A DNA stretch of 64,000 nt from an uncultured Candidatus Bathyarchaeia archaeon (GCA_964632845.1 CAZWDU010000003.1:84686-148685); one strand, 5' to 3'; shown: positions 1,061 to 21,680, counted from the stretch's first letter. The notes: generated from the letters alone by a model not told the origin. Translations and numbers: made by a program.

Positions 1061-1396
1061 TCAAGGTCGCTTCTGCGGAATGTACTGAAGCGAAATTGAC
1101 AATCGACTATGGCTCAAGCTATCACGCAAGTCATGATTCATACCCGAATCCTCAAGTCCAACCGTCGCATGACCCACGCGTTTAACTTTCCAGTTCTCAA
1201 GGTTTCCGCGTACAATCTGCGGGTTGCTAGTCACAATGAAGAATGGCATCCGAGTTTGCCTAGTGTAGAGTTCAGCGATGAAATTCAGCAACCGCTTGCC
1301 GATGCCGACGCCTTGGTAATCAGGTAACACAACCAGGCGGCTTACTCGGAAGTATCGGCTGCACATGTGAACGTGGATTACAGCGATGAATGCCAC
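1061..1396 (-). CDS. GNAT N-acetyltransferase domain; the frame is open upstream to nt 1543, so it is probably the C-terminal half of an ABC-ATPase/GNAT fusion
   Basis: GNAT motif A 'RLVVLPDYQGVGIGKRLL'. The upstream in-frame sequence 'VELRVYRCGHSAWKIFRQYHYLNGSLAPHCRCYVAIYHGVPVAF' reads as the missing GNAT N-terminal strands and has no start codon. Confidence 0.7.
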   Translation of the reverse strand: MAFIAVIHVHMCSRYFRVSRLVVLPDYQGVGIGKRLLNFIAELYTRQTRMPFFIVTSNPQIVRGNLENWKVKRVGHATVGLEDSGMNHDLRDSLSHSRLSISLQYIPQKRP

Positions 1397-1452
1397 AGGT
1401 ACACCATGGTAAATCGCGACGTAGCATCGGCAATGTGGCGCAAGGGAACCGT

Positions 1453-2139
1453 TTAGATAGTGATATTGTCGAAAAATTTTCCAAGCGGAGTGGCCGCACC
1501 GATAAACTCTGAGTTCAACGGGCGGCCTGACTCTTTTTTTCGGTCAAACACCATCGTGTCCGTGCAGAAAACCCAGTCAGGCTCCAACCAATCCACAACA
1601 TCATAATGGCACGTTACCGCAATGAACCGTTTTCCCTTTTGGCGCCGGACAGCTTTGCCGATGGCGAACGCGGCAACTTTCGCAACTTCACGATCAACCA
1701 CACTGGTGAACTCATCGAAAACAATCAATTCCTTCCCAGAACAAAGTGCGCGGGCGACGTCGACCCGCATCTTCTCACCCTGACTCAAGCAATCATAGCT
1801 CTTGAGCCAGTCAGGCGGCGAAGCAAACCCCACACTGCACAGAATTCGCGTGATCTCAGCCGTCCCAAGCTCCTCGGGAAAATCATCCAAAACGCAAGAA
1901 TGCGTATACTCAAAGCCTTTCACGTAGGCGTCGGGGAAAAGCTGCTTGGCTATGCTGGTTTTGCCTGTTCCGCTCCTGCCGACGATGACTCCAACTTGCC
2001 AGTCAAAGTCTTCAAAGGACAACTCGCCTCGAAAGCATTTCTCCAGCTTAACATCTGAAAGTGTGTATGAACCGACTACGCTCTGAGCTCTGAAACTCTG
2101 GGGTTGGTTCCAGCTTTTTACAAATTCAAAACGCGGCAT
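1453..2139 (-). CDS. compact ABC-type ATPase (228 aa as an ORF)
   Basis: Walker A 'GRSGTGKTS', signature-like 'LSQGEKMR', Walker B 'LIVFDEFTSVVD' and H-loop 'VTCHYD'. Confidence 0.8.
   Translation of the reverse strand: MPRFEFVKSWNQPQSFRAQSVVGSYTLSDVKLEKCFRGELSFEDFDWQVGVIVGRSGTGKTSIAKQLFPDAYVKGFEYTHSCVLDDFPEELGTAEITRILCSVGFASPPDWLKSYDCLSQGEKMRVDVARALCSGKELIVFDEFTSVVDREVAKVAAFAIGKAVRRQKGKRFIAVTCHYDVVDWLEPDWVFCTDTMVFDRKKESGRPLNSEFIGAATPLGKFFDNITI
1534..1540 (-). other. A7 run (A_AAA_AAA in the ATPase frame); a -1 shift here joins the ATPase frame to the GNAT frame
   Basis: Minus strand reads GAC CGA AAA AAA GAG. The -1 frame continues AGA GTC AGG CCG ... into the GNAT ORF without a stop. Confidence 0.5.
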
Positions 2140-2681
2140 TTCAAACCCTCAGCCACAAACCGTTCAAACTTCGCTTTCTGGTCAGCCTCATCCTTACACT
2201 CTATTATCAGTTCGTAGGTTTCAGGAACCGCACCCATGCGCTCTACTGGACCGCCGAGGTCTTCAGGCAGCTTTTCTCCAATGGATTGCAGCAGTTTTTC
2301 AAGATTATCTTTCTCTCCAGCTTCAATGATTCGACCATACTCTTCAAGGTCTAAGGCGCGTTGATGCTTACCCTTCAGCTTGTTCATGACCTGCCTAAGC
2401 AAGCGCCTGTCAACTTCTGAGACGGGCAGGCGCAGAACTGGGGCGAAGAATTCACCGTGAGTTTTGCAGACCGCAGCACGTTGCTCTCCGTCAGCGAACA
2501 CTCCATCTTTGTTGGTGAGGATTGGGTAGGTCCAACCGTACTTCTGAAGACTAACCCAAACCTGCTCCTGCTGTTTCAAACTCATCTTGTTCGGATTCTG
2601 GCCGTCACTCTTGAGGAGGCGGATGTCCTCTATGAGGTTGACGAAAGCCTCTGGTACACGAATCTTAGTTTGTGATGACAT
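2118..2681 (-). CDS. ParB/Srx N-terminal-domain protein (about 187 aa from the internal ATG at 2681)
   Basis: 'DGQNPNKMSLKQQEQVWVSLQKYGWTYPILTNKDGVFADGEQRAAV' fits the ParB-NTD pattern (NPx..., GxxRxxA arginine patch). Its end overlaps the ATPase start by 22 nt. Confidence 0.65.
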   Translation of the reverse strand: MSSQTKIRVPEAFVNLIEDIRLLKSDGQNPNKMSLKQQEQVWVSLQKYGWTYPILTNKDGVFADGEQRAAVCKTHGEFFAPVLRLPVSEVDRRLLRQVMNKLKGKHQRALDLEEYGRIIEAGEKDNLEKLLQSIGEKLPEDLGGPVERMGAVPETYELIIECKDEADQKAKFERFVAEGLKCRVLNL

Positions 2682-2745
2682 ATCTTTCACCGGAAACCCT
2701 GAGAAAAATGAAAAAGTGGGAAAATATGGAGAACAAGGCAAGCTC

Positions 2746-3192
2746 CTAATGCGTACCCGAAACAACTAGAACGTTGCTGAAATCCGTAAAGCCCGTCACA
2801 TTCGTAGAAACAGTCAACGTGAACGTCGCCTGAACAACCTGCCCAGCCGACAACACTATTCCCTGTCTATCCCATGCCACAGCAAGATAGGAGCCTGCTA
2901 TTGACGGAGACCAACTTGAAACTGCCAAGCTCAACGTCACCGCAACATTCCCAGTGTTCTTAACGTACACACTCCGAGTCACAGAACTGTCAGGATCCAC
3001 TACGCCCCAATCAATGCTCGTAGCATTCACGGTACAAGCTGAATCCTGATAGACACCCAAGTTAACCGCGATAATATTGCCGTAGCTGCTTATCGACTGC
3101 GAACGGCTCAGTGACGCCACTGCTGTGTATGAAACGAGGACTGCCAAGCAAACCACGAACATGGCACCAGCTAACCTTTTTGATTCATTCAA
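2746..3192 (-). CDS. secreted or membrane-anchored beta-sandwich (Ig/CARDB-like) protein
   Basis: The N-terminus 'KRLAGAMFVVCLAVLVSY' is a signal or class-III-like anchor. 'SVYVKNTGNVAVTLSL' is typical of CARDB-type folds. TTG start with GGGGGTGA upstream. Confidence 0.55.
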   Translation of the reverse strand: MNESKRLAGAMFVVCLAVLVSYTAVASLSRSQSISSYGNIIAVNLGVYQDSACTVNATSIDWGVVDPDSSVTRSVYVKNTGNVAVTLSLAVSSWSPSIAGSYLAVAWDRQGIVLSAGQVVQATFTLTVSTNVTGFTDFSNVLVVSGTH

Positions 3193-3285
3193 ACTTACAA
3201 TTCACCCCCAACGAATAAACAAGAAATGAAAAACGCGATTACTACGAGGATCCTAAGCCTTTGGAATGCTCGCAGTAACCTTGAG

Positions 3286-3459
3286 CTAAGTTTTGGTGTT
3301 GACTCCTTCGCTCCAGAAGCCAACAATTGCAGCTGTCACAGTTCCAGCTAAAGCAGCCTCGGCAGGACGACCCAACGCCAGCAAATAACCGCTTATGCCA
3401 GACCCGACGGTGCCAGCTAAAACAACCAGTTTCTCTTTTGTTGCACTAACCTGAACCAA
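3286..3459 (-). CDS. possible 57-aa membrane protein (below the track cutoff)
   Basis: My translation is LVQVSATKEKLVVLAGTVGSGISGYLLALGRPAEAALAGTVTAAIVGFWSEGVNTKT, with a TTG start 8 nt after GGAGGTGA. It is Gly/Ala-rich and hydrophobic. Confidence 0.3.
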   Translation of the reverse strand: MVQVSATKEKLVVLAGTVGSGISGYLLALGRPAEAALAGTVTAAIVGFWSEGVNTKT

Positions 3460-3504
3460 ACATTTTCACCTCCCTTCCAAATTATTACGATCACCTAGAC
3501 GAGA

Positions 3505-4167
3505 CTAAGCAAAGGTGAACGTCAATCTCCATTCAATCGTCAAAGGAACGCTCGTGTTAACAACGAAAGCAGTGAAGTCACCGTCCGCAGCGCTCAAACG
3601 ACTAAACAAAGCCGTGCCAGCACCGTTGAAATCAGTCCAGCCGAAACCCTGCAAACCAGTCTGCAGATAGAGGAACAAGCCAAGTTCTGAAACCGTAATA
3701 GCAGTCAGCGATCCAGCGTTCCACGTCGCTGTCCAAGATACACGATAAGTTCCGCCGCCTGGAGAAGACGTGGCGCCAGCTTGAGAATCAGGACCTGTCC
3801 CAACAGGCGTAGTCAATCCAGTTGTGGTTCCCTGAGTAACGTTTCCGCCAGTTCCAAGCCGCATGTACGTATAGACTCTACCAGTCCACTCACGAGAGAA
3901 GAGATACTTGTAGCTTGAAGAGGCGTTCGTAGTAGAAGCAGATAAAGCATTGATCAAGTGGACTAAGCCCTGGTTGACGATGTGACCTTTGCTTGCGAAC
4001 TTGAGTTTGGCGCCTTCATAAACAAGAATTTCATCAGTTACTTTGACGACGTCGCCGAATGTGTTTCTGCGTTTGAAGACGTCTTTAATTTTCTGCCTTG
4101 AGAGGCAAAGCATACGCTTCAGGTTGTTGTATTCCGCAGTTGTTAGCGGTCTTCTTGGTAATTCCAT
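3505..4167 (-). CDS. putative tail fibre / receptor-binding protein
   Basis: It is the last large gene of the tail module. The middle is Gly/Thr-rich and the C-terminus is beta-rich. Confidence 0.45.
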   Translation of the reverse strand: MELPRRPLTTAEYNNLKRMLCLSRQKIKDVFKRRNTFGDVVKVTDEILVYEGAKLKFASKGHIVNQGLVHLINALSASTTNASSSYKYLFSREWTGRVYTYMRLGTGGNVTQGTTTGLTTPVGTGPDSQAGATSSPGGGTYRVSWTATWNAGSLTAITVSELGLFLYLQTGLQGFGWTDFNGAGTALFSRLSAADGDFTAFVVNTSVPLTIEWRLTFTFA

Positions 4168-4185
4168 TTTTGTTTTGCACCTCCA

Positions 4186-4437
4186 TTAAGAATTCGTAAT
4201 TGTCGTTGATTCTGAATAGATCGGGGCATCTTCGCCCACTTTTCCATCTGCCTGAAGCATGTCCTCCATCTCGCCGAAAGAATCATCAAACATCTTTGCT
4301 TCAGCCAAAACAAAAACTTCAGTCGGAACAGGATGATCGCCAATGCTTCCTCTTAGATAAGCGATGAACCCGCTCTCTTGCCCCATGTTCCAAGCATTCT
4401 CCCTTCCAACTTGTCCCCTAATGATTTCTACTGGCAT
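4186..4437 (-). CDS. hypothetical virion-module protein (83 aa)
   Basis: Sits tightly between the baseplate and fibre genes and is acidic. Confidence 0.4.
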   Translation of the reverse strand: MPVEIIRGQVGRENAWNMGQESGFIAYLRGSIGDHPVPTEVFVLAEAKMFDDSFGEMEDMLQADGKVGEDAPIYSESTTITNS

Positions 4438-4446
4438 TTTTCACCC

Positions 4447-6558
4447 TCACTCATTTGTAATCGTTAGCTCCTCGGAAAAATCTGGAAAATCTTCCCTCGC
4501 AATGTTCTCGTTCATGCTCTGAACGTGAGTCTCGGCATAGACGCAGACTTCCCCAACCTGTTTGGTTCCGCCGTGGTTCACGTAGAGAGATTCAGTCATG
4601 TTGAACTCAAGCTGGCGTCTCTCTTCCAAAAGTGAAGCTTGAGGCGCAGAATTACATTGAATCTCATCTTCGAAGCGAATCAGCTCGATTGGGTCGAAGA
4701 GGATGGCGTCTGAGAAAAGCGCTTGCTCCAAGCTCTGCAGGTACCCGTCTGCCAGGTTGATAGTTATGAAGCCGAATTCTTCTTCGGGCGGCGGTTCTTC
4801 CTCTTCGCCAGTTCCGCCACCCTGAGCGTTATTAAGCCCAGAATCCTTAGCTGATAGCGCCTCTTGAAAGGCCACTAAGGCGTCAGCGAGTTTGAATCCT
4901 CGGTTTTGAAAAAGAACAGCTGTCTTCACGCCTCTAGCTGAGAAGCTGAACTCAACACTTTTAACTTCGCCATTAAACTCGTTTAAGCCGACTTCTGTGT
5001 TGGTGATTGTCGCCATGCAGTAGAGTTCGATAGGCACGATGTTCTGGGTTGTTAAAGCGATTTCCTTAGTGAGTTCCTTGTACTTCTGAAGCAAGCCTTG
5101 AGCTTTGGCTTGAGTGGCTGCCTGAGAGGATAGGCTTGTGTCTTTGAAGGTTTTGTCACGACGCCAGTAACTGCTCCCACTGGTTGAATCGTGCGCTGTG
5201 TACTCGTAGGGTGCGCCAGAACTGGTTTTTCCAACTTGATGGACGTAGTTTACGACTTCGTCGATGTCCCTGTTGCTGATGTTGAATTGGTCAGTTTTGC
5301 TCTTGAACGGAATACTGCTTTGGCTTCGGGCAAGGCTGAACGGCATGAAGTAGACGGTTTTGTTGAAATCGACGCCCCAAACGAAAACACACGCGTCTGC
5401 AAGCTCCTTAATGATCTTAGAAACCGTTACAGCGTTGTACTCAGCTGAAGTGGGCAAATCCTCTGGGATGCCTTCCAGAACATTGTCATAAGAGAATACG
5501 CCGTCGAAGTAGGTTTTAATCAGGTCCTTAACTATGAAGCCACAAGTCTTGTTCGAGTACGTCTTGTTGTAGGCTTCTCGGAAGTCCAAGCGTTTAGCAT
5601 AGCCTTTCCCGCTCTCAATCTTCAGCCGTGAAGGCGGATAGGTTCTCTCGGGAGCTTCAATGTAGCCTCTGAAAAGTAGGTAGAGGATGGCTTCGGTTCC
5701 CGCTCTTATTTCAATCTCAGATTTGACGCTGAGCTCGTCGTACTTGTTGCCCTCGTTCTTTATGGTTAAAGAGGCCTGTGGATGGCTTCCGTCGCGGAGA
5801 GCAACTCTGAAATCTATCACGTCGTCAGTGATTACTCTCTTTTCCAATCCAGTAACGGAGCTCACGATTGCCTTGGCTTTTCGGGTCTGGTTTCCGAAAA
5901 CAAGCAATGTCTTTGCGTAGAACTCTATTGAATCTGAGGCGTTTGCCATCGCGCTGAAGGCACAGCGAAGCGTTCCTGAAAGGCTCGGGTCACACCAATC
6001 GCTAATTGACCAGACCGTCGAACCATCCGAAGCCAGCTTTATCGTGAGGACAACCTGCAGTTTTGACGTGTCAACCGAGTAAGGTGTGACTTCCATCTCA
6101 ATGATGTACTCGGTTCCAAGTGACCAGGAAACGGCGGAGGTGTTAATTTTAGGCGAGTAGTTCTGCGATAACACAAACTTGAATTTGTTATCAGCTGTAG
6201 TCCCGTAAACATCCGCAACCCACATGCCATAAACTTCGGTTCCAAGAAAGTGACCATCCCGAACGTCAGGCGAGAGAAGATAGAAGTAAAAGCCAAAATC
6301 AATAGGCTTCACCATTACACGAATCTTGAATGGCACTTTAAACTCGGCTCGACTCATCAGATTTAAGCTGCCCCAACCGCTCGAATCAACAGCAGCCGCA
6401 AACCGGCAACCGTTAACTGTCGGCTCAATCGTGCCATCGGTGAAATCCACGCTGGAATTCTCACGCGTGAGGAATGCAAACCATTTTCCTCTATCTGGCG
6501 GATAACCAGCCGTGCCAATGAATGAGTCTTTGAAGAGAACGTTCTTGTACTCACCCAT
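4447..6558 (-). CDS. large tail-tip / baseplate protein (Tal-like, 703 aa)
   Basis: Its size and position directly after the Dit-like gene and the TMP match the siphovirus order. Confidence 0.6.
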   Translation of the reverse strand: MGEYKNVLFKDSFIGTAGYPPDRGKWFAFLTRENSSVDFTDGTIEPTVNGCRFAAAVDSSGWGSLNLMSRAEFKVPFKIRVMVKPIDFGFYFYLLSPDVRDGHFLGTEVYGMWVADVYGTTADNKFKFVLSQNYSPKINTSAVSWSLGTEYIIEMEVTPYSVDTSKLQVVLTIKLASDGSTVWSISDWCDPSLSGTLRCAFSAMANASDSIEFYAKTLLVFGNQTRKAKAIVSSVTGLEKRVITDDVIDFRVALRDGSHPQASLTIKNEGNKYDELSVKSEIEIRAGTEAILYLLFRGYIEAPERTYPPSRLKIESGKGYAKRLDFREAYNKTYSNKTCGFIVKDLIKTYFDGVFSYDNVLEGIPEDLPTSAEYNAVTVSKIIKELADACVFVWGVDFNKTVYFMPFSLARSQSSIPFKSKTDQFNISNRDIDEVVNYVHQVGKTSSGAPYEYTAHDSTSGSSYWRRDKTFKDTSLSSQAATQAKAQGLLQKYKELTKEIALTTQNIVPIELYCMATITNTEVGLNEFNGEVKSVEFSFSARGVKTAVLFQNRGFKLADALVAFQEALSAKDSGLNNAQGGGTGEEEEPPPEEEFGFITINLADGYLQSLEQALFSDAILFDPIELIRFEDEIQCNSAPQASLLEERRQLEFNMTESLYVNHGGTKQVGEVCVYAETHVQSMNENIAREDFPDFSEELTITNE

Positions 6559-7367
6559 TACTCGAACCCTCCCACGTCGTCGACAGCGAAAAAGTAGCTC
6601 TGAGCCTGCGACTTTGTCACAGCCAGTTTTATCATGTCAACTTGTCCCCAGTCCAGGTCGCCAAAATTGGCGAATGAAGTCTTGGGAATGCGAAGCCCAA
6701 GCCATTTGTCGGATTCAGTCAACAAGGCTGAAAAATCATAGGTTGCCGTGTGAACGCCTTCAGTAACAGAGACAACAGCACTGGTAATCTCTGAAATGTT
6801 ATCCATCAACCACCCGAAGCTTACCCAGTCAAAATCCTCAAGGTCGATGGCGTCCAAGGGTTCATACGTCACGTTTACTTCTTCAGATGCTTCAGCGCTG
6901 TGACTAACTTTTAGACAACCTAAACCCTCGAACGGAGTTGGAGCGTCAGAAGCAATAGCGACAACGGCGCCTATTGTCGAACTAGACCAGTCAGCGATTC
7001 CGTCGCACGCATTAACTTGCTTGAATAAGCTTTCCTTCAGCGATAAGCCATATCGGAGGATTTCCACGCCAATCTTGACAAGCTTAACCTCTTTGACAAA
7101 AACAACCGTCTTCACGGCGTCAGAGTCCAGTTCTAAGCTGTTTCCAATGCACTTGAACCGTTGGAACTGTTTGAAATCATCGTATCTGCTGGTTCCTCGT
7201 AGTATTCCAGAAAGCTCTATCGTAGAGGCAAGCTCTCCAAGGTCCTGACTGCCTGAACCGCGAGCAGTTGGCAAGTCGATGTCTTCAAGCCTTTTTCTAT
7301 CCGAAAAGCTGAGTCCATTAACGATGCCGAGATTTAGATCGCCAAGCGTAACTGTCATTTTGGTCAC
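6558..7367 (-). CDS. distal tail protein (Dit-like)
   Basis: 269 aa, immediately downstream of the TMP, with a 4-nt overlap at its start and a 1-nt overlap at its end. Confidence 0.5.
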   Translation of the reverse strand: MTKMTVTLGDLNLGIVNGLSFSDRKRLEDIDLPTARGSGSQDLGELASTIELSGILRGTSRYDDFKQFQRFKCIGNSLELDSDAVKTVVFVKEVKLVKIGVEILRYGLSLKESLFKQVNACDGIADWSSSTIGAVVAIASDAPTPFEGLGCLKVSHSAEASEEVNVTYEPLDAIDLEDFDWVSFGWLMDNISEITSAVVSVTEGVHTATYDFSALLTESDKWLGLRIPKTSFANFGDLDWGQVDMIKLAVTKSQAQSYFFAVDDVGGFE

Positions 7368-8446
7368 CTCGGCACAAAGAACGTCTGAGCCTTCAAGTCC
7401 GAGCGCACAATTCGGCTTAGATGCTCGTAGGCAGCTTCAGCAAATTCCCGCGGATCCTGAGCATTACTTAAACTGCCCTCTGGGAAATTAAACGTAGGTG
7501 CCAAGACCAAAGTTTGAGAACCAGCATTCCCAGAAACTCTATCCAATGGAATAACAGCCTCAGCTCCAGCCTCACCAATCAAAGCGACTGTGGGCTTGGT
7601 GACTATGCCTCCTTCCGCCAGCCCGATGAGTCCCTTAATTCCAGCGATACCGGCTCCAACGGCAGCCAAAATCACAGGCACAGCTACACCAAGCGTCACC
7701 GTACCCTGAAACGCCATCCAAGCAACAGTCGCAGCAACAACCGCAGCGATTCCAACCATCAACGCAGAAGCAATACCACGCAAATTTTCAGGAAGAGCCT
7801 TCAACAATGCGTCTCCAGCTAAGAAACCTCCGATGAAGGCGCCTACGCCGAGCGCTGCAGTCTTCGCACTGATGCCAACGTTGTTAATCCTGCTTGAAAC
7901 ATTGCTTAGCATTCCAGTGACGTCGGGAAAATTCTTCCAAACACGACTTAAACTATCAACCATAGAAATGCTCGTGGGAATAACCTGCAATGCGCTTCGC
8001 ATCATAGCCTCGTTCATGTTTCCCTGAACAACTTCCGCTTTTTCAACAGCGAGTTGATAGCGATCCTGAGCCAGCTTCAGGTCGTCAGCTGCGGCTTTAG
8101 CCTGGTCACTATCGGCTCCATACTTTTCAACGGCAACGTTTAATCGCCTCTGAGCATCCTCGACGCTGTTTAGGCTGCTCTTGACTTGGAGGTTGGCTCG
8201 GTCAAGCGAAACCTGCATATCCTGAACACGGTCAACCGCATCATAGAGGCTGAAGGCGCTCGTGGCAAGGTTGTTAAAGCCTAACGCAAGGTCCTTAGTG
8301 CTGGCTTCGCTTTGTTTCTGAGCCTCAGAAACTCGTTTTCCAGCATCCTCGACTTCTTTAAGGCTACCGTTGATTTTGGTTCCAGCGTCCGCTATGGTTT
8401 TACTTGCCTCATCCGTAGCTTTCAGAAGTACATTGATTTCGCTCAT
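7364..8446 (-). CDS. tail tape measure protein
   Basis: The N-terminal half is coiled-coil, the middle is Gly/Ala-rich and hydrophobic, and the C-terminal motif 'GGIVTKPTVALIGEAGAEAVIPL' is typical of TMPs. Confidence 0.8.
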   Translation of the reverse strand: MSEINVLLKATDEASKTIADAGTKINGSLKEVEDAGKRVSEAQKQSEASTKDLALGFNNLATSAFSLYDAVDRVQDMQVSLDRANLQVKSSLNSVEDAQRRLNVAVEKYGADSDQAKAAADDLKLAQDRYQLAVEKAEVVQGNMNEAMMRSALQVIPTSISMVDSLSRVWKNFPDVTGMLSNVSSRINNVGISAKTAALGVGAFIGGFLAGDALLKALPENLRGIASALMVGIAAVVAATVAWMAFQGTVTLGVAVPVILAAVGAGIAGIKGLIGLAEGGIVTKPTVALIGEAGAEAVIPLDRVSGNAGSQTLVLAPTFNFPEGSLSNAQDPREFAEAAYEHLSRIVRSDLKAQTFFVPR

Positions 8447-8452
8447 AACAGT

Positions 8453-10250: not shown

Positions 10251-10253
10251 AGT

Positions 10254-13764: not shown

Positions 13765-15096
13765 TCAAGTTCCGGCTGCAACCAGATTATTCATAAAGGC
13801 GCCCTTCAAATCTTCAGGTGAGTAGCCGAGCTTCTTGCTGGCTGCCGCAGGACTGATGATGCCATGCTCAATCTCCCTGCATAGTTTCTCGCTTAGTCGG
13901 TACACATCTTCAGCTTTCAAGGGACGCCAAACCAACCGCGCCATCTCAGGCACACCGGCAACCTTGAATACGTTAGCCTGATAGAACCGCTTTAACCTAC
14001 GCTGGTCATCTCTGACTTCAGCCTCTAACAATCGCTCTTGATAGTCAGCTGTAGCCATCGTTGTGGTTCCACCGACACCGAGAGCAATTTCGGGTACGCC
14101 TAAGCCGCCGATAAGTTCGTTCTCGAAATGCTTCAGCACAGGCTCAATCATCTGGCGGCTGTTTCCGATGTTTTTGTAGACTTCCTCGATTTTCAGGATA
14201 GTGCCGTCATTGTAGATGTCGCTTCCGTCAGGTCGCGTCTCCAATTGGTTTTTAACTTTGTTGAAATCCGTTTCGCTTATGTCATGGTCAGCGTCGCCCA
14301 AATCAATCTGAAGCAAAGGATGAGCAAGACGACGTGCAAGCCATGGAAGCTTCTTCTCCATGTACAAAATCGCTTTAAGGCAGGGCAGAATGTTGCGGAG
14401 ACTGCTTGTTCCGAAGCGGTCCCATGGACGGCAGTTGAACTTGAGATGCCAGATTTCTTCAGGTGGGTACTCGACCTTTTTGCCGACGGCTTCGGTGTAA
14501 ACGTATTGCTCCAGCGTTTTCTTGTCTGAAGACAGCTTAATGCCCATGAGCATAGGGTTTAACGGGTCCCAGATGTCGCCGTTTTTGTGCCAGTACATGT
14601 TCCCGAAAATCTTCGCATAAAGCGAACCATCACGCAAATATTCTTCGTCAATGATGGCGAGAGATGCCTTCGCTTTGTCGCTGATTTGATTTTTGCCGCC
14701 GAGGTCTATGTCGTAACCGTTCTGCCAAATCATCGCGTGCTTAACCATTACTGCTCGGTTCACGTAGGGCACGAGGTCGAAAGCATCCTGATAATCCGCA
14801 TAATCGTTAAAGTCTTCGGGCACGGTTACGCCGCTGGAAGGCAAGTAGTTGACCTTAGCCATCTGCGACAGGTTCAACGTTTGAACGCTTTCACTAATCA
14901 GCTTGGCGCCTTGTAGGATTCCGCGAATGCTCGTAGTAGAAGCTGCGTTCTTCATCTCGGTTGAAGCGACAAGATAGTTCTGCGATTCGCTTGCACCGAA
15001 ACTGAGAAGGCACTTTCTAGTCTTTGGCTTAGAAAGCTCTGTTACTTTCTTCTCTAGGTCTCGAATGCGTTTTCCAGCGGTAAACGGATTAAACAT
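13765..15096 (-). CDS. portal protein
   Basis: 443 aa, downstream of the large terminase and upstream of the protease and MCP genes. Confidence 0.75.
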   Translation of the reverse strand: MFNPFTAGKRIRDLEKKVTELSKPKTRKCLLSFGASESQNYLVASTEMKNAASTTSIRGILQGAKLISESVQTLNLSQMAKVNYLPSSGVTVPEDFNDYADYQDAFDLVPYVNRAVMVKHAMIWQNGYDIDLGGKNQISDKAKASLAIIDEEYLRDGSLYAKIFGNMYWHKNGDIWDPLNPMLMGIKLSSDKKTLEQYVYTEAVGKKVEYPPEEIWHLKFNCRPWDRFGTSSLRNILPCLKAILYMEKKLPWLARRLAHPLLQIDLGDADHDISETDFNKVKNQLETRPDGSDIYNDGTILKIEEVYKNIGNSRQMIEPVLKHFENELIGGLGVPEIALGVGGTTTMATADYQERLLEAEVRDDQRRLKRFYQANVFKVAGVPEMARLVWRPLKAEDVYRLSEKLCREIEHGIISPAAASKKLGYSPEDLKGAFMNNLVAAGT

Positions 15097-15586
15097 GAAT
15101 GTTAAGCTCCCATCGACGCTTGTTCACGTTGTAGATCCAAACTGCAGACTTAATCAGAGATGCCACCTGAAGCATGTACGCTTGTCCCGCAGCAACCTGT
15201 TCAGGCGTGTTCTTAACCTTAAACCGTTTGGATTGATGCTCTATTGCCACGCAGTAGCCGACTCCGTAAGGCATCAATGGATAAGCTCTGCACAGCAACG
15301 GGCGGTCATTGTAAATCATGCAGCCAGAGTGCACGTTTAGGAAGGGACACTTTGCATCGCTGAACTGCCACGTCGTCACTTGTCCCGTCAAACTCTTCGT
15401 TAACGGAAAGAAATTAACCGTGACACCCAACCGCTTTGCCAACTGCTCAAGTCTAACCTTTTCTGAGCCTGTGATGGCAGCGCCGAATCGTTTCCCAAAT
15501 AGTTGCCGACAGCACTCGCCGCAAGCCTGACACCTGAATAGTGTTTGTATTTTTGGAATGTCTAAGCTGAAACTGCAGGGATTCAA
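15089..15586 (-). CDS. YkgJ-family CxxCxxCC cysteine-cluster protein
   Basis: 'RCQACGECCRQ' plus the distal 'CPFL..SGCMIYNDRPLLCRAYP'. Its end overlaps the portal start by 8 nt. Confidence 0.7.
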   Translation of the reverse strand: MNPCSFSLDIPKIQTLFRCQACGECCRQLFGKRFGAAITGSEKVRLEQLAKRLGVTVNFFPLTKSLTGQVTTWQFSDAKCPFLNVHSGCMIYNDRPLLCRAYPLMPYGVGYCVAIEHQSKRFKVKNTPEQVAAGQAYMLQVASLIKSAVWIYNVNKRRWELNIHV

Positions 15587-15588
15587 GG

Positions 15589-16917
15589 TTACTTCTCCAA
15601 ATCTCCAAAAGCTACCTTTCCGATACTACGACGTTGCCCAGAGAGCACCGCGAAAGCTCCACTGGCACTGTCTACTTGGTCGTCGTGTTCGCCTTCAGGG
15701 AAAACCTCAGCCTCATCCAAGAACGCGTTAATCCAATCTCCCCTTACGAGGAACACGTTTTTCCTTTCCGCACTAGCACTCAAAGGACCGGCACGTGTCA
15801 CTTTGTCGCCCGTGCTTCGTGTTCCATGATAGTTGAAGCCAACAAGAACTTCCCGAGCGTAGTGGTCGCTGGCGATTTTGCCGCTGGAACCGCCTTCTTC
15901 TTCCATCCAGACCTGAACAGCGCGTCCATCAACCTCAGCCGTTTGCCGAACACGGTCTTCAGTTTGCTTAGGCGAACCGCGAAAACGGCAGATGTCAAAG
16001 ATGAAGAGCTGGCCATCCTTCAACCCTGCAAGTGTTCCGCTTGTCCAGTCAGGGTCTTTGCCCTTCTCCACTTCAGTTGACGCTAAGTCCCAGAACCGAA
16101 CCTTCCGAATCCCAGCAGGAACATCAGACGGCTCGACAATGCGGTCTTCGAACCATTCGCGGCGAAACATCGTGCCCAACTGAGCATCCCAGCAACCCTC
16201 AAGAATCTGCTTCCGACGCACAGGATCCAACTGAAGAAGGCTCTGACGATAGGTTGCTTGGTCAAGCTCAGGATTGTCCTCAAGCCTTGCAGGAATGAAC
16301 GCTCGACCATGACGTTTGCCCTCGATAAGGAAACGCTGCTTCACCCAATTGTGTCCAAGTCCTCCGGGATTTGTGGCACACCGCATCCGCAACGGCACAG
16401 CCATCCCGACTGGACGGCGAAGACGGCTAAACAGGAACACGTACTGAAGCTCAAACCACTCAGTAACTTCGTCAACGCCAATGAATTGAAACTCTGCACT
16501 CCTATACCGCTGCTCATCTCCAACACTTTCGCAGTAGCCGAACACGAGTCTGGCGCCAGAGGGAAAATGCCACGTATGGTTCACTTGGTCCCAACGAGCT
16601 GCGGTCCCGTCTAACCATAGGTGCGAGAGGTCCATCAGCGCTTTCGGCAACGACAAGTCAGGATAGGTTCGCCTTAGGAGCAAAGCCGAGTAGCCAGGAA
16701 TGTTCACGTATTGCAACGCAGCAGAAAGCAAGGCAACGGTTTTGCCTCCGCCACCCGCTCCGCCATACATGCACTCAAGGACGTCGCAGAGTAAGAATTG
16801 AGCTTGAGGGGACCTGCCGTCACTTGTGATTAGCGGCTTCCACTTTATCCACTTGTTCTCCAGAACCGCCCGCCTGAACAACTCTCGTTGAAACGTCTCC
16901 TTTGAAGAGGAACTCAT
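15589..16917 (-). CDS. terminase large subunit
   Basis: Walker A 'GGAGGGGKT', 'LLLRRTYPDL', Walker B 'FIGVDEVTEW', and nuclease-domain Asp motifs 'FWDLAS' and 'HDDQVDSA'. I chose the ATG at 16917; the ORF is open to 16974. Confidence 0.9.
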   Translation of the reverse strand: MSSSSKETFQRELFRRAVLENKWIKWKPLITSDGRSPQAQFLLCDVLECMYGGAGGGGKTVALLSAALQYVNIPGYSALLLRRTYPDLSLPKALMDLSHLWLDGTAARWDQVNHTWHFPSGARLVFGYCESVGDEQRYRSAEFQFIGVDEVTEWFELQYVFLFSRLRRPVGMAVPLRMRCATNPGGLGHNWVKQRFLIEGKRHGRAFIPARLEDNPELDQATYRQSLLQLDPVRRKQILEGCWDAQLGTMFRREWFEDRIVEPSDVPAGIRKVRFWDLASTEVEKGKDPDWTSGTLAGLKDGQLFIFDICRFRGSPKQTEDRVRQTAEVDGRAVQVWMEEEGGSSGKIASDHYAREVLVGFNYHGTRSTGDKVTRAGPLSASAERKNVFLVRGDWINAFLDEAEVFPEGEHDDQVDSASGAFAVLSGQRRSIGKVAFGDLEK

Positions 16918-17470
16918 AACGTCTAAGAAGCTCAGTGGTTTCGGACAATTCGACGTTCTTCTGCACCTGTACAACGTTGTTGATTTTCACTTGAGGCTCC
17001 ATGTTCACTCTCGGAAGCAACCCGAGGCTCTGACGTAGCTCAACCTCAATCTTCACAACTGCTGCTAATGTGCGAGCTGCGCCAACCTTCGCATTGTCGT
17101 TATCGGCACCCTGCATAAGCCTAATCGCGTTTTCTCTCGCCAACTCCAGAAACTTCAGCACGTCTTTACCGTCATCCTGAGCGCTCCAGTTTGCCCAAAT
17201 GAATGGCTCCCACTTAGCTCGGCGGTCATAATCCCGACGTAGAGCAAACTCTGTCACTTTCTTATGGATGCCTTGGCTCTCGTAATTCTCAGTCAGTTGC
17301 TTGGCCAGAGCTCTCAAAGTCACGCTATTGACTGCACCACCGTAGTGCAAAAGCAAGAGGCGTTTGCGCCTATAGAACAGATCCAAATCCATCTGCACAA
17401 AGGGCTTATCCTTTGAGGGTATGGGCTGTTCTGGGACAGCGCTGTCCGAACTCTGTTCATTAGAACTCAT
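16820..17470 (-). CDS. putative terminase small subunit
   Basis: Assigned only by position immediately upstream of, and overlapping, TerL. Confidence 0.45.
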   Translation of the reverse strand: MSSNEQSSDSAVPEQPIPSKDKPFVQMDLDLFYRRKRLLLLHYGGAVNSVTLRALAKQLTENYESQGIHKKVTEFALRRDYDRRAKWEPFIWANWSAQDDGKDVLKFLELARENAIRLMQGADNDNAKVGAARTLAAVVKIEVELRQSLGLLPRVNMEPQVKINNVVQVQKNVELSETTELLRRYEFLFKGDVSTRVVQAGGSGEQVDKVEAANHK

Positions 17471-17601: not shown

Positions 17602-17751
17602 CTAAGGTTGATTTTTCGCTGCGATTGTTTGCATAGTAGCTATTCGGTTTCTGATTGTTGCAAGTATGTCTTCGGCAACGATGTCCTGAAGCTCAACAGG
17701 CAATGAAACGATTGGCTTCAAGGCTAAGTCTAATTCTTTCTTAAAGTTCAA
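17602..17751 (-). CDS. possible 49-aa protein
   Basis: TTG start after AAGGAG; translation is (M)NFKKELDLALKPIVSLPVELQDIVAEDILATIRNRIATMQTIAAKNQP. Confidence 0.25.
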   Translation of the reverse strand: MNFKKELDLALKPIVSLPVELQDIVAEDILATIRNRIATMQTIAAKNQP

Positions 17752-17782
17752 ACAAACATCTCCTTTCAAATTAGCCGAGTCT

Positions 17783-18112
17783 TCAGTGGAACACGCCCAT
17801 CCCGATGGCCGTCAAAATTGACACCAGACTGCAGATAACGAAAACTAGAGTAGCCGTGATTTTCTGGTCAATCGCCTTCTGCCTTGACTCTAACGCAGCA
17901 ATCTGTTTCTGATGGATGTTGCACCGTTCATCAATGCCCTTCCGATATTCCATAAAAACGTCTGAGCGAAGAAACTCGGCTGCTGCAAGAGGCACGTCGT
18001 CTTCATGCTTCTTCAACAAGCTGAAATGCACCCTCTCCACGGCTATCACATAACACGAGACCTTTCTCAATTGTCTCGGGAACTGCACCCTTCTGCAACG
18101 CCTCACCACCAA
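17783..18112 (-). CDS. hypothetical protein with a C-terminal TM anchor (true start probably internal, near 18020)
   Basis: Coiled 'QKQIAALESRQKAIDQKI' followed by the TM segment 'TATLVFVICSLVSILTAIGMGVF'. Confidence 0.4.
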   Translation of the reverse strand: MVVRRCRRVQFPRQLRKVSCYVIAVERVHFSLLKKHEDDVPLAAAEFLRSDVFMEYRKGIDERCNIHQKQIAALESRQKAIDQKITATLVFVICSLVSILTAIGMGVFH

Positions 18113-18245
18113 AGCAGACTAGCAAATGCTCAACGACGTCGTCGCGGCTCAATTGGCTTACTGATTCGCTCCGCTGTCGATCCCAGAAAGCATTCTCACG
18201 AATGTAGACTCTAGCTAAGGCTGCTTGACTTCTTTTATGAACCAT
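18003..18245 (-). CDS. hypothetical protein (80 aa from the ATG at 18245)
   Basis: ORF beginning MVHKRSQAALARVYIREN... with no motif. Confidence 0.35.
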   Translation of the reverse strand: MVHKRSQAALARVYIRENAFWDRQRSESVSQLSRDDVVEHLLVCFGGEALQKGAVPETIEKGLVLCDSRGEGAFQLVEEA

Positions 18246-18371
18246 ACTAAAGCACTCTTCCTGCTTTTGCCTGCAGGTGGCGCGTTCCCCCGAAAACTCA
18301 CCACTAAAGTATGGAGAATCCCTTGACCATAAGAAATATTTAAGCACTTGACATAAGACCATCAAATAGAC

Positions 18372-19310
18372 TTAGGCAAACTCTCCGATTATCGATTGCA
18401 CAACAAGGAAGATGACATAAACAGTAACGAGCAGTGCTCCATCTTTTCTATCCAAAACGCCATCCCGAGACAAAGCGTAGACAAGCACTGCGGACACTAT
18501 CATAATTACGCCAGTTGAAAACGGAGAAAAAAGAAGAGCGGGCTTAATCGGCTGAATAAGAGTGATAATGCCTATAGTCAACATGGAATCTGCAAGAACG
18601 TTGCCCAAAATATTTCCCAATCCGAGATCGCCATGCTGCTTTTTGGACGCACGAAGAGCAAAAGCTAACTCAGGCAAGCACGTTCCAACTGCCACGACAG
18701 CTCCAACCAAAAACAACGGCAAACCAAGCGATAAACTCAACTCTTGCGAACTATCAGTAATAAGCGTCGCCCCTGCAAACAGAATTGCTAAACTAACCGC
18801 CAAAACCAAGAATTCAAAAACAAACCGAAGTTTCTGTCGTTTACCAGTCACTGCAGGTCCATCCCGTTTTGTCCTTAGCAAATTAAACCAGTAAAGCATG
18901 AATGCCAGCAACAAAATGACTCCGTCTATGCGTGAGATGTCGCCGTCAACGAACAATAAAACAGGAAGGACAACAGCCAAAAGAGACAGGCGAACGTTCT
19001 TTATTACAGAAGAATTAAGAGTCAGTTTTCCAGCAACCAACACTAAAACTCCGATAACTAAGGTTAAATCGGCAACGTTTGAGCCTAAGATAAGTCCGAA
19101 ACCAAGCGATGAGGTTCCTTCAACAGCCGACAGGACACCAATGGCCATTTCTGGAAGAACAGCGATTATGCCCGCGATCACAAAACTTGTGACAAATTCG
19201 GATAGACGAAAATATTTCGCCAAATTCAGAAGCCGTTTTATCGCTTCATCTGCGCTGAAGACTACGATAGCTAGTCCAACGCAGATTAGCAGGATAGGAA
19301 CTAAAACCAT
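18372..19310 (-). CDS. CaCA-family Na+/Ca2+ exchanger (YrbG / NCX_Mj-like)
   Basis: About 10 TM segments. Alpha-repeat signatures are 'AVLPEMAIG...GSNVADLTLVIG' and 'GTCLPELAFAL...GNILGNVLADSMLTIG'. 'ISRIDGVILL' matches the NCX_Mj layout. Confidence 0.8.
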   Translation of the reverse strand: MVLVPILLICVGLAIVVFSADEAIKRLLNLAKYFRLSEFVTSFVIAGIIAVLPEMAIGVLSAVEGTSSLGFGLILGSNVADLTLVIGVLVLVAGKLTLNSSVIKNVRLSLLAVVLPVLLFVDGDISRIDGVILLLAFMLYWFNLLRTKRDGPAVTGKRQKLRFVFEFLVLAVSLAILFAGATLITDSSQELSLSLGLPLFLVGAVVAVGTCLPELAFALRASKKQHGDLGLGNILGNVLADSMLTIGIITLIQPIKPALLFSPFSTGVIMIVSAVLVYALSRDGVLDRKDGALLVTVYVIFLVVQSIIGEFA

Positions 19311-19441
19311 TGTATATCAATGGGGAAAGGAAACCACTTTATTTAAACCTTTATTCCTTCTCGAAAAAGACTCAAGCTTCTTTTATGCTGAAGCCGATGA
19401 TGCGCGATATTACCCTAAAAGTTCCTTCTTTTCAAACAGAC

Positions 19442-19603
19442 TTATTGGTCGCTCCACAAGTCATTCTTTGCTCGGTTCAGCTTCTTGGCGATTCCGGCAA
19501 AATGCAGCACAAACCGCCCGAAACAGGTCCTGCAATAACCTGATTTGTTTCCTCGACTGATAGGGTCACCGCATTCACGGCATCGTCGAGGCTGCTTACC
19601 CAT
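19442..19603 (-). CDS. zinc-ribbon protein (53 aa from the ATG at 19603)
   Basis: 'CRECGDPISRGNKSGYCRTC' has two CxxC pairs. An ATGGGTAA overlap links it to the upstream gene's stop. Confidence 0.5.
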   Translation of the reverse strand: MGKQPRRCRECGDPISRGNKSGYCRTCFGRFVLHFAGIAKKLNRAKNDLWSDQ

Positions 19604-20051
19604 CGGTTCCGATCTCCTCTCTGGTTTTTCCCCAAATCTCAAACCCAAAATCCGTGAAAACCCACTTCTTACCATGCTTCTCAATCAAGTGCTTGCCGAA
19701 AACATCACCGCACTTGCGATTAACCCGGTTGACAATCCGAAGTATCTTATGTTTCTCAAGCTTGAACGACTTCAAATCTGAAGCTATCTTCTTGGCTAAA
19801 ACGCCGCTGCCTGACTCGTAAATGGTTGAGACAACAGCAAAATCCATATCACTTTCGCAGCAGACCTTCTCAATAAAAGGACGTTCAAAATGGAAGTACC
19901 AGCTTAAACCCTGGAAGAGAATCCGCTGCATCTGCTCAATACGCTCTAAGCGGGCTTCGATGCGGTTCATTCGCTGAATTTCATACTTGTGTTTACCAAC
20001 TTTTTCAGCCTGAGAACGCCTCTTGGGTACAGTTGATTCGCTATTTTCCAT
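19596..20051 (-). CDS. hypothetical protein, possibly a wHTH regulator
   Basis: ATG at 20051 (MENSEST...). It is basic, with 'LKSFKLEKHKILRIVNRVNRK' as a helix-like segment. Confidence 0.4.
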   Translation of the reverse strand: MENSESTVPKRRSQAEKVGKHKYEIQRMNRIEARLERIEQMQRILFQGLSWYFHFERPFIEKVCCESDMDFAVVSTIYESGSGVLAKKIASDLKSFKLEKHKILRIVNRVNRKCGDVFGKHLIEKHGKKWVFTDFGFEIWGKTREEIGTDG

Positions 20052-20296
20052 GCCCATCCATCCCAAACAGGAAAAACGCAACATCAACACGTTTAGAATT
20101 TAACAGTCGGCAACCTACACCTGTCACCTTCAAAACACTGCAACCTGAAAAAACCTCTAAAAGGCGCTGTTTCACGCAAAATACGTCTAAATTGAGCTTA
20201 TGTAGGGGCATGGAAAAACGCAGTTGGGCATGAACACTAACTGCCGAAAACAGGTTACTACGAGTGTAGTAAGTCTTAGAATCTTCGTAGTAAACG

Positions 20297-21424
20297 CTAA
20301 GAGACATAGCCTCTTCCTCCTTCGGCAATAATTTTTGGCGATTCATTTTCACCTTGAGGCTTGGCAGCATCTAAACCGAAGAGTTTACCGAGAGTATCGG
20401 CAAGGCGTTCATTGGCGGTAACTAATCGCTCAATCAACTGCGTTTTCTCAACGTTGTTTTTAACCAAGACCGCAACGTAAGAACAGAGAGAGTCAATCTT
20501 CAATTCTAAGCTTTCAAGAGTTAGAGGAAAATCAACTGCAGCTCTGCCAAGATTCTTTCCAGCGTCGTAAGCCACAGGAAAAGAAGCAGCAATAGCCGCA
20601 TGACGCTTATCCGCGTATTCCAAATGCGGACGCCCACTGAGAATGTCCTGCTTATCATGCGTAGGACTAGCATCTAACGCCCTGTCATCGTCAACCTCGA
20701 CGGTTCCAGCTTCAATCCAAGCATGACATTCTGGCCTGTAAACTCTAAACCGAGGCTTACGCAACGATTCACCAAAATCGCTTAGAAGCATCCCGAACCG
20801 TTCTTCCAAAACAAGCCGAACGCGTTCGACAACACGTGCAGCATCCATCTCCAACTCGTCTACATTGAAGCCCTTCATTTGCCCTGGATGAATAATTACT
20901 GTAGGCTCCACACCCAAATTCAAAACAACCCGCACAGTCCCTAATCGAACGCCGAGCTTAACCCAGTTCCGAGGCTCGCCGAGTTTACGCCAATCTAAAG
21001 CAGTTTGCTCTCTTCGAAGCACCTTAAACTTAACCGCATGATCTTCAAGCAGCACGGGCAATCGAACACGCTCGTCACTACCTGTGAGAAGTTTTGAACC
21101 GTAAGCCGTAAGCTCATAATACTTGACTATGCCGTCGACCTTTAGCCTTAAAGCCCCTGCCCTGAGGAACTTGTTTTTCCAATAAGTCACGTTGCTCTTG
21201 CAGCAACCAGCTACACGAACCGCCTCACTAGCGACGCCGTCAGCTCCAAGAACGCCGAGAATGTCTATTGCTTTCTGAGGTAATGGCTCTAAGAGTTCAA
21301 AACTGTCATTGAACTTTTGAACTGGTTCTTTTGAACTGGGTTCAATGAGTCGACGACGCTCAACCAAAAAAATCAGCTCCTCGCTCTGCTCCTCAACGCT
21401 TCTTTCCGAGTGGGGCACGAGCAA
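20297..21424 (-). CDS. HTH-domain protein, candidate replication or regulatory protein (375 aa)
   Basis: N-terminal 'AIDILGVLGADGVASEAVRVAGCCKSNVTYWKNKFLRAG' is HTH-like. It is the first gene of the train. I see no P-loop and no R..HxxR..Y recombinase pattern. Confidence 0.45.
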   Translation of the reverse strand: MLVPHSERSVEEQSEELIFLVERRRLIEPSSKEPVQKFNDSFELLEPLPQKAIDILGVLGADGVASEAVRVAGCCKSNVTYWKNKFLRAGALRLKVDGIVKYYELTAYGSKLLTGSDERVRLPVLLEDHAVKFKVLRREQTALDWRKLGEPRNWVKLGVRLGTVRVVLNLGVEPTVIIHPGQMKGFNVDELEMDAARVVERVRLVLEERFGMLLSDFGESLRKPRFRVYRPECHAWIEAGTVEVDDDRALDASPTHDKQDILSGRPHLEYADKRHAAIAASFPVAYDAGKNLGRAAVDFPLTLESLELKIDSLCSYVAVLVKNNVEKTQLIERLVTANERLADTLGKLFGLDAAKPQGENESPKIIAEGGRGYVS

Positions 21425-21680
21425 AAGAGACTAGGATCTGAAAAGCCAAAACATTCCAAATCGTCAGACCGGCACTTCCGACCTAAAGATCCCTCAAACA
21501 GTTTAGGACCTGCAAACTCACAGGAACCGCTGGGCACCACTTCAGAATTGACAGGCTCTGGAAACTTGTAGTTCTCCAGTAACTTGGAGCCCATCACGAG
21601 CTACCTCCAAAAAACCGACTAAAAATGCTAGAAAAAAGAAAAAGGGGAAAATAAAGAACAGTATAAAGGCGCGTGTGGAG

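Follow-up and report, generated by a model that had tools for sequence, protein, structure and literature searches.

The DNA analysed here, called the window below, is a 64,000-nt stretch of the genome of an uncultured Candidatus Bathyarchaeia archaeon (GCA_964632845.1 CAZWDU010000003.1:84686-148685). Its left part carries an element of about 21 kb and about 31 genes, nearly all on one strand, which spans approximately 749-21680 and lies directly behind a host tRNA-Asn. A reading of the sequence alone, referred to as the sequence-only reading, had described 1061-21600 as a compact head-tail virus genome integrated in an archaeal chromosome. The gene train exists as noted: 31 consecutive open reading frames (ORFs) on the minus strand occupy 1061-21597 with short gaps, 96% of the span is coding, and two of the larger gaps are recoding regions (in ABC/GNAT and in the tail chaperone). 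The proposed ends had to be moved, to a plus-strand viral ORF at 749-1006 on the left and to the 3' end of tRNA-Asn at 21681 on the right. The gene labels were checked against Pfam, PHROGs, NCBIfam and PADLOC, and nearly all of the functional labels were reproduced by profile or structure; for TerS, protease/scaffold, "terminator", Dit and fibre, it is the gene position that stands behind the label. The features are given below in order of transcription. Numbers with the prefix L (e.g., L010, L119 and L228) label the comparison loci and viral contigs retrieved for this analysis.

21681-21757, minus strand: host tRNA-Asn(GTT), found by ARAGORN and Rfam; attL side
21598-21680, minus strand: post-tRNA flank with a 13-nt spacer, a TATA-like TTTATA motif and a T-rich tract
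21373-21597, minus strand: first small early ORF, 74 aa, with 56-77% identical homologues ahead of the winged helix-turn-helix (wHTH) gene in L228, L232, L234, L120 and L233
20297-21424, minus strand: 375-aa early protein with a wHTH, a ferredoxin-like domain and a long C-terminal helix (AlphaFold2 model)
19442-20370, minus strand: three early genes of 109 aa, 164 aa and 80 aa, the last a CxxC...CxxC zinc ribbon
18372-19310, minus strand: CaCA (Na+/Ca2+ exchanger family) membrane transporter (Pfam Na_Ca_ex, 3e-37)
17602-18365, minus strand: three small genes of 120 aa, 109 aa (with a C-terminal transmembrane helix) and 55 aa, 77-90% identical in L228
16820-17470, minus strand: candidate TerS, 216 aa, by position
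15589-16974, minus strand: TerL (phrog_979, 4e-97; Pfam Terminase_6N and 6C, both above their cut-offs)
15089-15586, minus strand: YkgJ-type CxxCxxCC metal-binding protein (PF03692, 9e-10)
13765-15096, minus strand: portal (phrog_9232, 7e-16; Pfam Phage_portal at 23.5 bits, below the cut-off of 39.1)
12872-13672, minus strand: multi-pass membrane protein resembling isoprenylcysteine methyltransferase (ICMT) or PEMT, weak matches only
11774-12838, minus strand: candidate prohead protease-scaffold fusion, 354 aa, between portal and capsid genes, with a C-terminal coiled coil
10720-11673, minus strand: major capsid protein (MCP) with an HK97 fold (AlphaFold2 model and Foldseek)
10254-10640, minus strand: gp6-like adaptor (PF05135, 6e-7)
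9822-10250, minus strand: gp10/Neck1-like protein (phrog_5, 5e-13; relatives match PF04883)
9400-9843, minus strand: 147-aa protein, possible tail-completion or terminator protein by position
8986-9387, minus strand: tail tube (PF18906, 3e-5, just below the cut-off; phrog_290, 2e-6)
8450-8979, minus strand: tail assembly chaperone with a G/GT-type -1 frameshift (slippery T_TTT_TTG at 8612-8618)
7364-8446, minus strand: tape measure protein, 360 aa (several PHROG tape-measure families, 1e-7 to 1e-6)
3505-7367, minus strand: distal tail genes of 269 aa (Dit by position), 703 aa (Tal-like), 83 aa and 220 aa (fibre-like)
2746-3459, minus strand: 148-aa secreted protein with an Ig-like domain and a signal/transmembrane N-terminus, and a 57-aa putative ORF
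2118-2765, minus strand: ParB-like protein with a ParB/Srx nuclease fold (phrog_620, 1e-9; phrog_498, 3e-11)
1061-2139, minus strand: ABC-type ATPase and GNAT acetyltransferase (phrog_11143, 2e-56 and 7e-16 for the two halves)
749-1006, plus strand: 85-aa ORF, the leftmost gene callable as viral, with a 57% identical homologue beside ParB in the viral contig L153

The MCP gave no profile match, and a structural model was calculated from 34 homologues with AlphaFold2 (pLDDT 84.7, pTM 0.81). A Foldseek search of the PDB with this model placed the capsid of Haloferax tailed virus 1 (HFTV1) at the top (E 5e-12), followed by HK97 (E 1e-10), with the capsid of a gene transfer agent (GTA) also among the matches. 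Against BFVD, the TM-scores reached 0.80 and the MCP of Halogranum tailed virus 1 was matched at E 2e-14. The HK97 fold is thus clear in the model, and PF25209 (Phage_capsid_4) was found on many of the 64 homologue clusters of the MCP. The closest MCP relative is 58% identical, one 98% fragment aside, and tblastn detected no match in 50,697 deposited phage and virus records. TerL and the portal were both assigned to families, as listed, and searches of the two proteins against PDB sequences gave no match. The closest TerL in deposited virus genomes is that of Methanothermobacter psiM100/psiM2 (46% identity over 92% of the length, E 1e-106); the other listed top matches are Gordonia phages. psiM2 is a pac-type virus, and because TerL is related to that of psiM2, the element probably uses headful packaging. 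In L007 (3936-5930), the TerL frame was called as three pieces of 278, 210 and 152 aa, with Terminase_6N on the first and 6C on the last, which may reflect an intein or inserted gene within TerL.

Around these proteins, the remaining members of the head module were assigned with different strength. The portal has 45-52% identical homologues in about 30 relatives, and an identical portal protein was found in an independent sequencing run, on a 2.5-kb contig. The candidate TerS had no match in the family scans, NCBIfam included; homologues with 29-39% identity lie directly upstream of TerL in L130, L135, L142, L148 and L157. Homologues of the YkgJ-type protein occur in L002, L003, L004, L098, L106, L115, L116 and L212, and its gene lies between TerL and portal in the three of these where both neighbours were retrieved (L003, L004 and L212), which points to a conserved member of the head module. 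In the 354-aa protein, His116 and Ser171 are invariant in 16 homologues. Neither Pfam (16 homologues) nor a sequence-profile search of the PDB supported an assignment; the protein is a candidate for a prohead protease fused to a scaffold. phrog_195 was also matched in the head-tail joining genes at 9400-10640.

The tail genes follow directly. The tail tube protein is 86-92% identical in L125, L222 and L223. From the heptamer, the -1 frame of the chaperone stays open down to 8453, just ahead of the tape measure start at 8446, an arrangement that we read as the canonical G/GT -1 frameshift. The PHROG matches of the tape measure protein fall on its conserved C-terminal motif GEAGAEAVIPL. By the rule of 1.5 Å of tail length per tape-measure residue, taken from the verdandivirus paper, its 360 residues predict a short tail of about 54 nm. 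Among the distal tail genes, the 703-aa protein matches phrog_1887 (2e-8) and phrog_5417 was also found (9e-7); their order is kept in L221-L224 at 60-89% identity (29-78% for the 83-aa protein), with dN/dS values of 0.05-0.13. The 148-aa Ig-like protein has a weak match to DUF7507 (2e-4) and a 50% identical homologue inside the virus L222. No sheath family was matched by any ORF in the Pfam and PHROG scans, and the presence of tube, G/GT chaperone and tape measure in order indicates a short, non-contractile tail of the siphovirus type. The element holds the full particle-building gene set for an HK97-fold capsid and such a tail.

The chromosomal setting agrees with the archaeal origin proposed from the sequence. 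Homologues of the radical-SAM protein encoded on the right flank, with 62-86% identity, were found at 80 genome loci, nearly all of which carry the label Bathyarchaeia; tRNA-Asn(GTT) follows the radical-SAM gene in 7/7 orthologous loci scanned for tRNAs, as it does in the window. This neighbourhood is of the Bathyarchaeia type, and on gene content the host is assigned to this class. Viral genes downstream of the tRNA were absent from all 80 orthologous radical-SAM/tRNA-Asn loci, including the closest ones (81-86% identity). The flanking gene at 34-600, the C-terminus of which is intact, has homologues at a distance of 2.8 kb past tRNA-Asn in L020 and of 7 kb in L070, with unchanged relative orientation. 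Because none of the 80 loci has viral genes and the homologues of gene 34-600 lie beyond tRNA-Asn in L020 and L070, the approximately 21 kb between tRNA-Asn and gene 34-600 are inserted DNA. The opposite case named by the sequence-only reading, a fixed non-mobile locus with identical synteny in all relatives, is not what these loci show. The left boundary falls between 601 and 748. Element and flanks have a similar GC content. Elsewhere in the window, GC is 0.42-0.45 at 53000-60000, compared with 0.46-0.51 over most of the remainder.

The right boundary was placed by comparing what follows the tRNA. The same type of post-tRNA flank was found in L228 (tRNA-Asn, near-identical through the junction), L119 (tRNA-Arg TCT) and L126 (tRNA-Arg TCG); it was absent after the three other tRNAs of the window and from many orthologous loci, and loci with other element types carry other flank types. 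Because the same flank stands behind tRNA-Arg in L119 and L126 and other flanks accompany other elements, it belongs to the element, which then begins at or in the 3' end of tRNA-Asn. The stretch TTTATACTG after the tRNA was also considered as a native host trailer, with insertion about 50 nt downstream, and this was rejected on account of the identical type of flank behind tRNA-Arg. The flank probably holds the early promoter. Relatives with the same early genes were found at tRNA-Arg(TCT) in L119, tRNA-Arg(TCG) in L126, tRNA-Gln in L134 and L164, and another tRNA 3' end in L232, positions that we take as the mark of an integrase that inserts into tRNA 3' ends and whose specificity can be exchanged. 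The capsid, portal and terminase assignments and the 80 loci free of viral genes support the claim of an integrated head-tail virus genome. With these three proteins, the element has the hallmarks of the tailed dsDNA viruses (Caudoviricetes, realm Duplodnaviria). In our assessment, the element is very probably a tailed-virus provirus of about 21 kb, placed directly after tRNA-Asn of a Bathyarchaeia archaeon, belonging to a virus group known from metagenomes and having no recognisable integrase.

The nearest relatives are uncultured IMG/VR contigs, e.g., UViG_3300045735_000089, 3300035198_000290 and 3300044580_000536, together with JGI Ga0315268_10038742; their tail genes are 71-92% and their early genes 74-90% identical to those of the window. 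The last of these is the metagenome contig L228, which has the same tRNA-Asn junction as the window and repeats its gene order after the tRNA (74 aa, wHTH, 109 aa, 164 aa, zinc ribbon, cargo, then 120, 109 and 55 aa) at 74-90% identity. The succession of wHTH, 164 aa, a variable stretch, 120 aa and packaging genes was found in more than 10 IMG/VR contigs, and no retrieved relative spans all modules of the element. A sister lineage, represented by L119 (1-11788) and L222 (1-13286), shares the early cassette (66-88%) and the tail genes (76-92%). Its head module differs, with a protease-scaffold, a decoration protein, another MCP and a 400-420-aa portal-like protein; it also has a CaCA gene on the opposite strand and a 622-aa DUF4365 protein. 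Four 21-nt iterons lie at L119:2765-2861, and no TerL was seen in the retrieved parts of L119 and L222. L119 was considered as a capsid-only satellite, which was rejected since the same head module runs into the tail module in L222.

These comparisons describe the element as a mosaic, in which a psiM2-like TerL and a head module of YkgJ, portal and capsid genes are combined with early and tail modules shared with other uncultured Bathyarchaeia viruses. A recombinant origin, from an early and tail backbone of the L119/L221/L222 lineage and a head and packaging module of the L004/L096/L106 type, fits the position of the ParB/ABC-GNAT cassette, which lies after the tail genes in the window (with an equivalent form in L221 and L223) and just upstream of TerS/TerL in most relatives. 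Pairwise dN/dS against L221, L222 and L119 was 0.03-0.13 for tail, early and CaCA genes, at dS of 0.6-1.9. The genes are intact, and these low values show that they have been kept functional under strong purifying selection.

The ParB/ABC-GNAT cassette itself carries the second recoding region. A slippery run A_AAA_AAA at 1534-1540 on the minus strand links the ABC frame to the GNAT frame by a -1 shift, and in the window as well as in 7/7 relatives examined, an A7-A9 run located 85-103 nt ahead of the ABC stop marks the opening of the GNAT frame. The predicted fusion of about 359 aa compares with 357 positions in the profile of phrog_11143, a family of unknown function, and ABC and GNAT are fused in one ORF in L221. 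Because the A-run and the frame are kept, the fused length equals that of phrog_11143 and L221 has a single ORF, the split is interpreted as recoding, by ribosomal or transcriptional slippage. Gene decay was rejected as its cause on the same conservation of frame offset and A-run. In most of the closer IMG/VR contigs with an ABC homologue, a ParB-like gene lies directly upstream of ABC-GNAT. In L221 (7745-14909), a TerL-like gene of 539 aa and a fused ABC-GNAT gene of 485 aa come after the tail genes and precede the homologue of gene 34-600. Past that homologue, ABC-GNAT occurs again as a copy truncated at its 5' end, with about 80% identity to the first as judged by eye, which suggests repeated insertions at the L221 locus.

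In the early cassette, the genes for the 109-aa, 164-aa and zinc-ribbon proteins are 66-88% identical in L119 and 74-76% in L228. Homologues of the 164-aa protein occur in about 20 viral contigs and in most relatives, and in more than 12 relatives the gene for the 120-aa protein precedes the packaging genes. For the 375-aa protein, over 185 homologues were found, with identities of up to 90%; all are on contigs of the Bathyarchaeia type, and most are chromosomal. Some of them lie in virus genomes and others in small islands beside AbiEi, Holliday-junction-nuclease-like genes and CRISPR-Cas (L120, L121). No Pfam, PHROG, NCBIfam or PADLOC family was matched. Its AlphaFold2 model (pLDDT 80) matched PDB entries in the wHTH domain only (ArsR, Sso10a and AspA types), and the best whole-chain match was of the Lrp/AsnC type and weak (E 2e-3). 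E127, D128, H179, H267 and E269 are invariant in the family, and an extreme C-terminal G..YV[SR] motif with a nearly invariant Y373 is conserved on a disordered tail. On its predicted structure, the protein is probably an early regulator. A catalytic role, to which its fixed position, the invariant acidic and histidine residues and the C-terminal motif could point, is barely open.

Two genes of the element appear to be host-derived cargo. The label of CaCA exchanger was reproduced by its Pfam match. Homologues with 67-80% identity are ordinary chromosomal genes beside a DNA ligase, KARI or class-I aminoacyl-tRNA synthetase gene; CaCA genes are also found inside the sister viruses L119 (65%) and L222 (31%), and no close relatives were detected in IMG/VR. 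The slot of the CaCA gene holds a 433-aa secreted protein in L228 and two secreted proteins, of 353 aa and 1017 aa, in L134. Because the relatives keep the flanking order and vary the content of this slot, CaCA appears to be cargo of host origin that occupies a defined variable slot within one virus genome. For the ICMT-like protein, the methyltransferase label stands on weak matches (ICMT 0.003, PEMT 0.004, and NCBIfam isoprenylcysteine methyltransferase 4e-6, far below the cut-off). In the loci retrieved, its sole relative is a 24% identical host gene of L070, and the gene appears to be a second host-derived cargo that is unique to the element of the window.

The tRNA-Asn behind which the element lies is used by other mobile elements as well, in L010, L011, L030, L046, L066, L070, L075 and L079. 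A tyrosine integrase gene follows tRNA-Asn directly in L079, L070 and L046, and repeats of 32-51 nt of the tRNA-Asn 3' end surround other elements in L010, L011 and L030. Two or more unrelated types of element use this site, one carrying a 478-aa tyrosine integrase and another the wHTH gene next to the tRNA, and the locus comparison marks tRNA-Asn(GTT) after the radical-SAM gene as a mobile-element hot spot in Bathyarchaeia. The 4.7-kb island of L010 (3762-8573) preserves a scar in which tRNA-Asn is followed by a wHTH gene 80% identical to that of L134, the remnant of a tyrosine-integrase C-terminus and a repeat of 51 nt of the tRNA end, and the flank after this repeat differs from that after the intact tRNA. 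The island otherwise holds flavodoxin, DsrE-like protein and ABC transporter genes, and it looks like a heavily eroded provirus.

Several observations weigh against the provirus interpretation, most of them concerning the integration machinery. No integrase was found in the ORFs of the element by Pfam and PHROG, or by NCBIfam and PADLOC on subsets of them. A profile of the local L079-type tyrosine integrase gave nothing at E <= 10 in the 64-kb window, nor did tblastn, and scans of IMG/VR with that integrase found none in the close relatives examined. No tRNA-Asn copy and no terminal direct or inverted repeat was found at the left junction (600-1100). For att sites, direct repeats were sought from 9-11-nt seeds, the tRNA plus its flank was run as a blastn-short query, and k-mers were compared between the junction zones; this returned low-complexity T/A-rich matches only, and the 51-nt repeat of L010, which served as positive control, was detected. 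A 25-nt T-rich match between 21630-21653 and 2702-2726 was rejected as an att pair, as its E-value is 0.18, it resembles a terminator, and it would exclude ParB-ABC-GNAT, which sister viruses carry in that position in ABC-GNAT-type form. No replication gene was recognised in the element, and its left boundary is placed only to within about 150 nt. Furthermore, because gene 34-600 sits between two ABC-GNAT copies in L221, it could itself be part of a variable island.

For the provirus, the most economical reading of these gaps is the loss of a distal integrase together with attR. The element would have integrated through site-specific recombination at the 3' end of tRNA-Asn, with a tyrosine integrase encoded at its distal end; the integrase and attR would since have been lost, leaving a provirus that may still build particles and is probably unable to excise on its own. 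This model is drawn by analogy from L010, which keeps a wHTH gene, an integrase fragment and the 51-nt repeat of the tRNA end. L221, with tail genes 71-89% identical, ends against a 60% identical homologue of gene 34-600, with no tRNA fragment. We give even chances to the element being grounded or defective for excision, and a somewhat smaller though real chance to its being still inducible, through an integrase in trans or an unrecognised recombinase; the small remainder goes to other outcomes. The 375-aa protein could also represent a novel type of site-specific recombinase or of targeting factor, which would mediate tRNA-adjacent integration without a conventional integrase. Its gene is always the first large gene after the tRNA, and such a role, if true, would explain why the window and L221 have neither integrase nor att duplication. 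As an integrase the protein was rejected, since its structure comprises wHTH and ferredoxin-like parts only, and 88% identical homologues lie at different tRNAs and others away from tRNAs; we regard the proposal as improbable.

Three other explanations of the locus were considered. A domesticated, vertically inherited GTA-like element, whose structural genes are kept for host use to produce particles, would account for the scans in which no integrase, att repeat or replication gene was found, and for the intact ORFs, preserved recoding sites and low dN/dS. It would also suit L221, where the element adjoins the homologue of gene 34-600 again without integrase or tRNA fragment, although the distal module of L221 is wholly different and does not fit simple vertical descent. 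The MCP fold matches the GTA capsid, but every HK97-type capsid does. Vertical inheritance is difficult to reconcile with the absence of the element from all orthologous loci, the closest included, and with relatives at no fewer than four different tRNA genes; the heavy module shuffling and cargo turnover are typical of active viruses, and a full early and regulatory cassette and morons are present. We therefore consider a GTA-like element very improbable. That an assembly chimera joined a free viral genome to host DNA is suggested by nothing more than the origin of the window from an uncultured genome. The independent metagenome contig L228 is near-identical through the junction of tRNA-Asn and virus, host sequence stands on both sides, and the GC content changes little between element and flanks, so that a chimera can be practically dismissed.

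The element could also be a composite of at least two unrelated insertions, i.e., an island at 21600-19400, a host CaCA gene, a separate virus remnant and a leftover ParB-ABC-GNAT. CaCA homologues elsewhere are ordinary host genes, and homologues of the wHTH protein occur in non-viral islands too (L120 and L121, beside AbiEi and CRISPR-Cas, and L233). However, the 164-aa and 120-aa genes keep their order around variable cargo in more than 10 viral contigs, and L228 reproduces the order of the window exactly, without CaCA. The distal ParB-ABC-GNAT, which lies upstream of TerS and not after the tail genes in most relatives, would point in the same direction as the CaCA gene, but an ABC-GNAT-type gene also follows the tail genes in the sisters L221 and L223, which suggests that the distal position is a trait of the lineage. 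A T-rich tract like that behind the tRNA separates the tail genes from ParB, yet this match is not significant and resembles an archaeal terminator. A composite is thus quite improbable, and a single provirus remains our preferred explanation.

Among known viruses, psiM2 and psiM100 (Methanobavirales) share with the element the related TerL and a small archaeal siphovirus-type genome, of 26 and 31 kb; psiM100 is a provirus too. They differ in host class, the MCP found no match among deposited records, and apart from the terminase no module was seen to be shared. The verdandiviruses of Asgard archaea have complete genomes of 19.5-20.6 kb on circular contigs, with no replication genes recognised, and are predicted to be lytic. 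They resemble the element in size, HK97-fold MCP, siphovirus-type tail, short tape measure, lack of replication genes and runs of small genes that include regulators of the HTH and zinc-finger types, and appear to be its best analogue in size and content. Unlike the element, they are not integrated, and they have a capsid-stabilisation gene upstream of the MCP gene that the element lacks; the sisters L119 and L222 have a decoration gene there. No sequence relationship with verdandiviruses was seen in the MCP search, the collection searched not being confirmed to hold them.

Tailed viruses of Bathyarchaeia have been published as Fuxiviridae (32 kb), Kunpengviridae and eight tailed proviruses (BATPV). 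Fuxivirus is likewise small, is rich in zinc-finger and wHTH proteins, and shares host and virus class with the element. The Kunpengvirus and the BATPV proviruses integrate and belong to the same host class and virus class, but Kunpengvirus encodes an integrase, PolB and MCM, which were not found in the element. No MCP match to Fuxiviridae or Kunpengviridae was obtained in deposited records, a collection not confirmed to hold PP467601 and PP467599, and the element probably represents a different family-level lineage from Fuxiviridae, Kunpengviridae and BATPV. Two statements of the sequence-only reading lose force in the light of this literature. That tailed archaeal viruses outside haloarchaea and methanogens are sparsely described is out of date, given the Bathyarchaeia viruses just named, the hundreds of archaeal proviruses published (770 in a 2026 survey) and the dozens of relatives in IMG/VR. 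For the small size of the element, the verdandiviruses and archaeal proviruses with reported sizes of 10.0-62.7 kb provide precedents.

Current concepts are left unchanged by the element, and its missing integration machinery is the only real puzzle. The near-complete gene map of a siphovirus-type lineage of about 21 kb ties scattered IMG/VR fragments of a widespread uncultured virus group to a host class and an integration site. It also documents module exchange between lineages, with the psiM2-like terminase and the head module set in a shared backbone of early and tail genes, host-derived membrane cargo (CaCA and ICMT-like) with a defined variable slot, tRNA-Asn as a mobile-element hot spot in Bathyarchaeia, and two conserved frameshift sites. 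Bathyarchaeia, uncultured to date, count among the most abundant archaea of sediments, and each well-delimited provirus enlarges the still small picture of their viruses.

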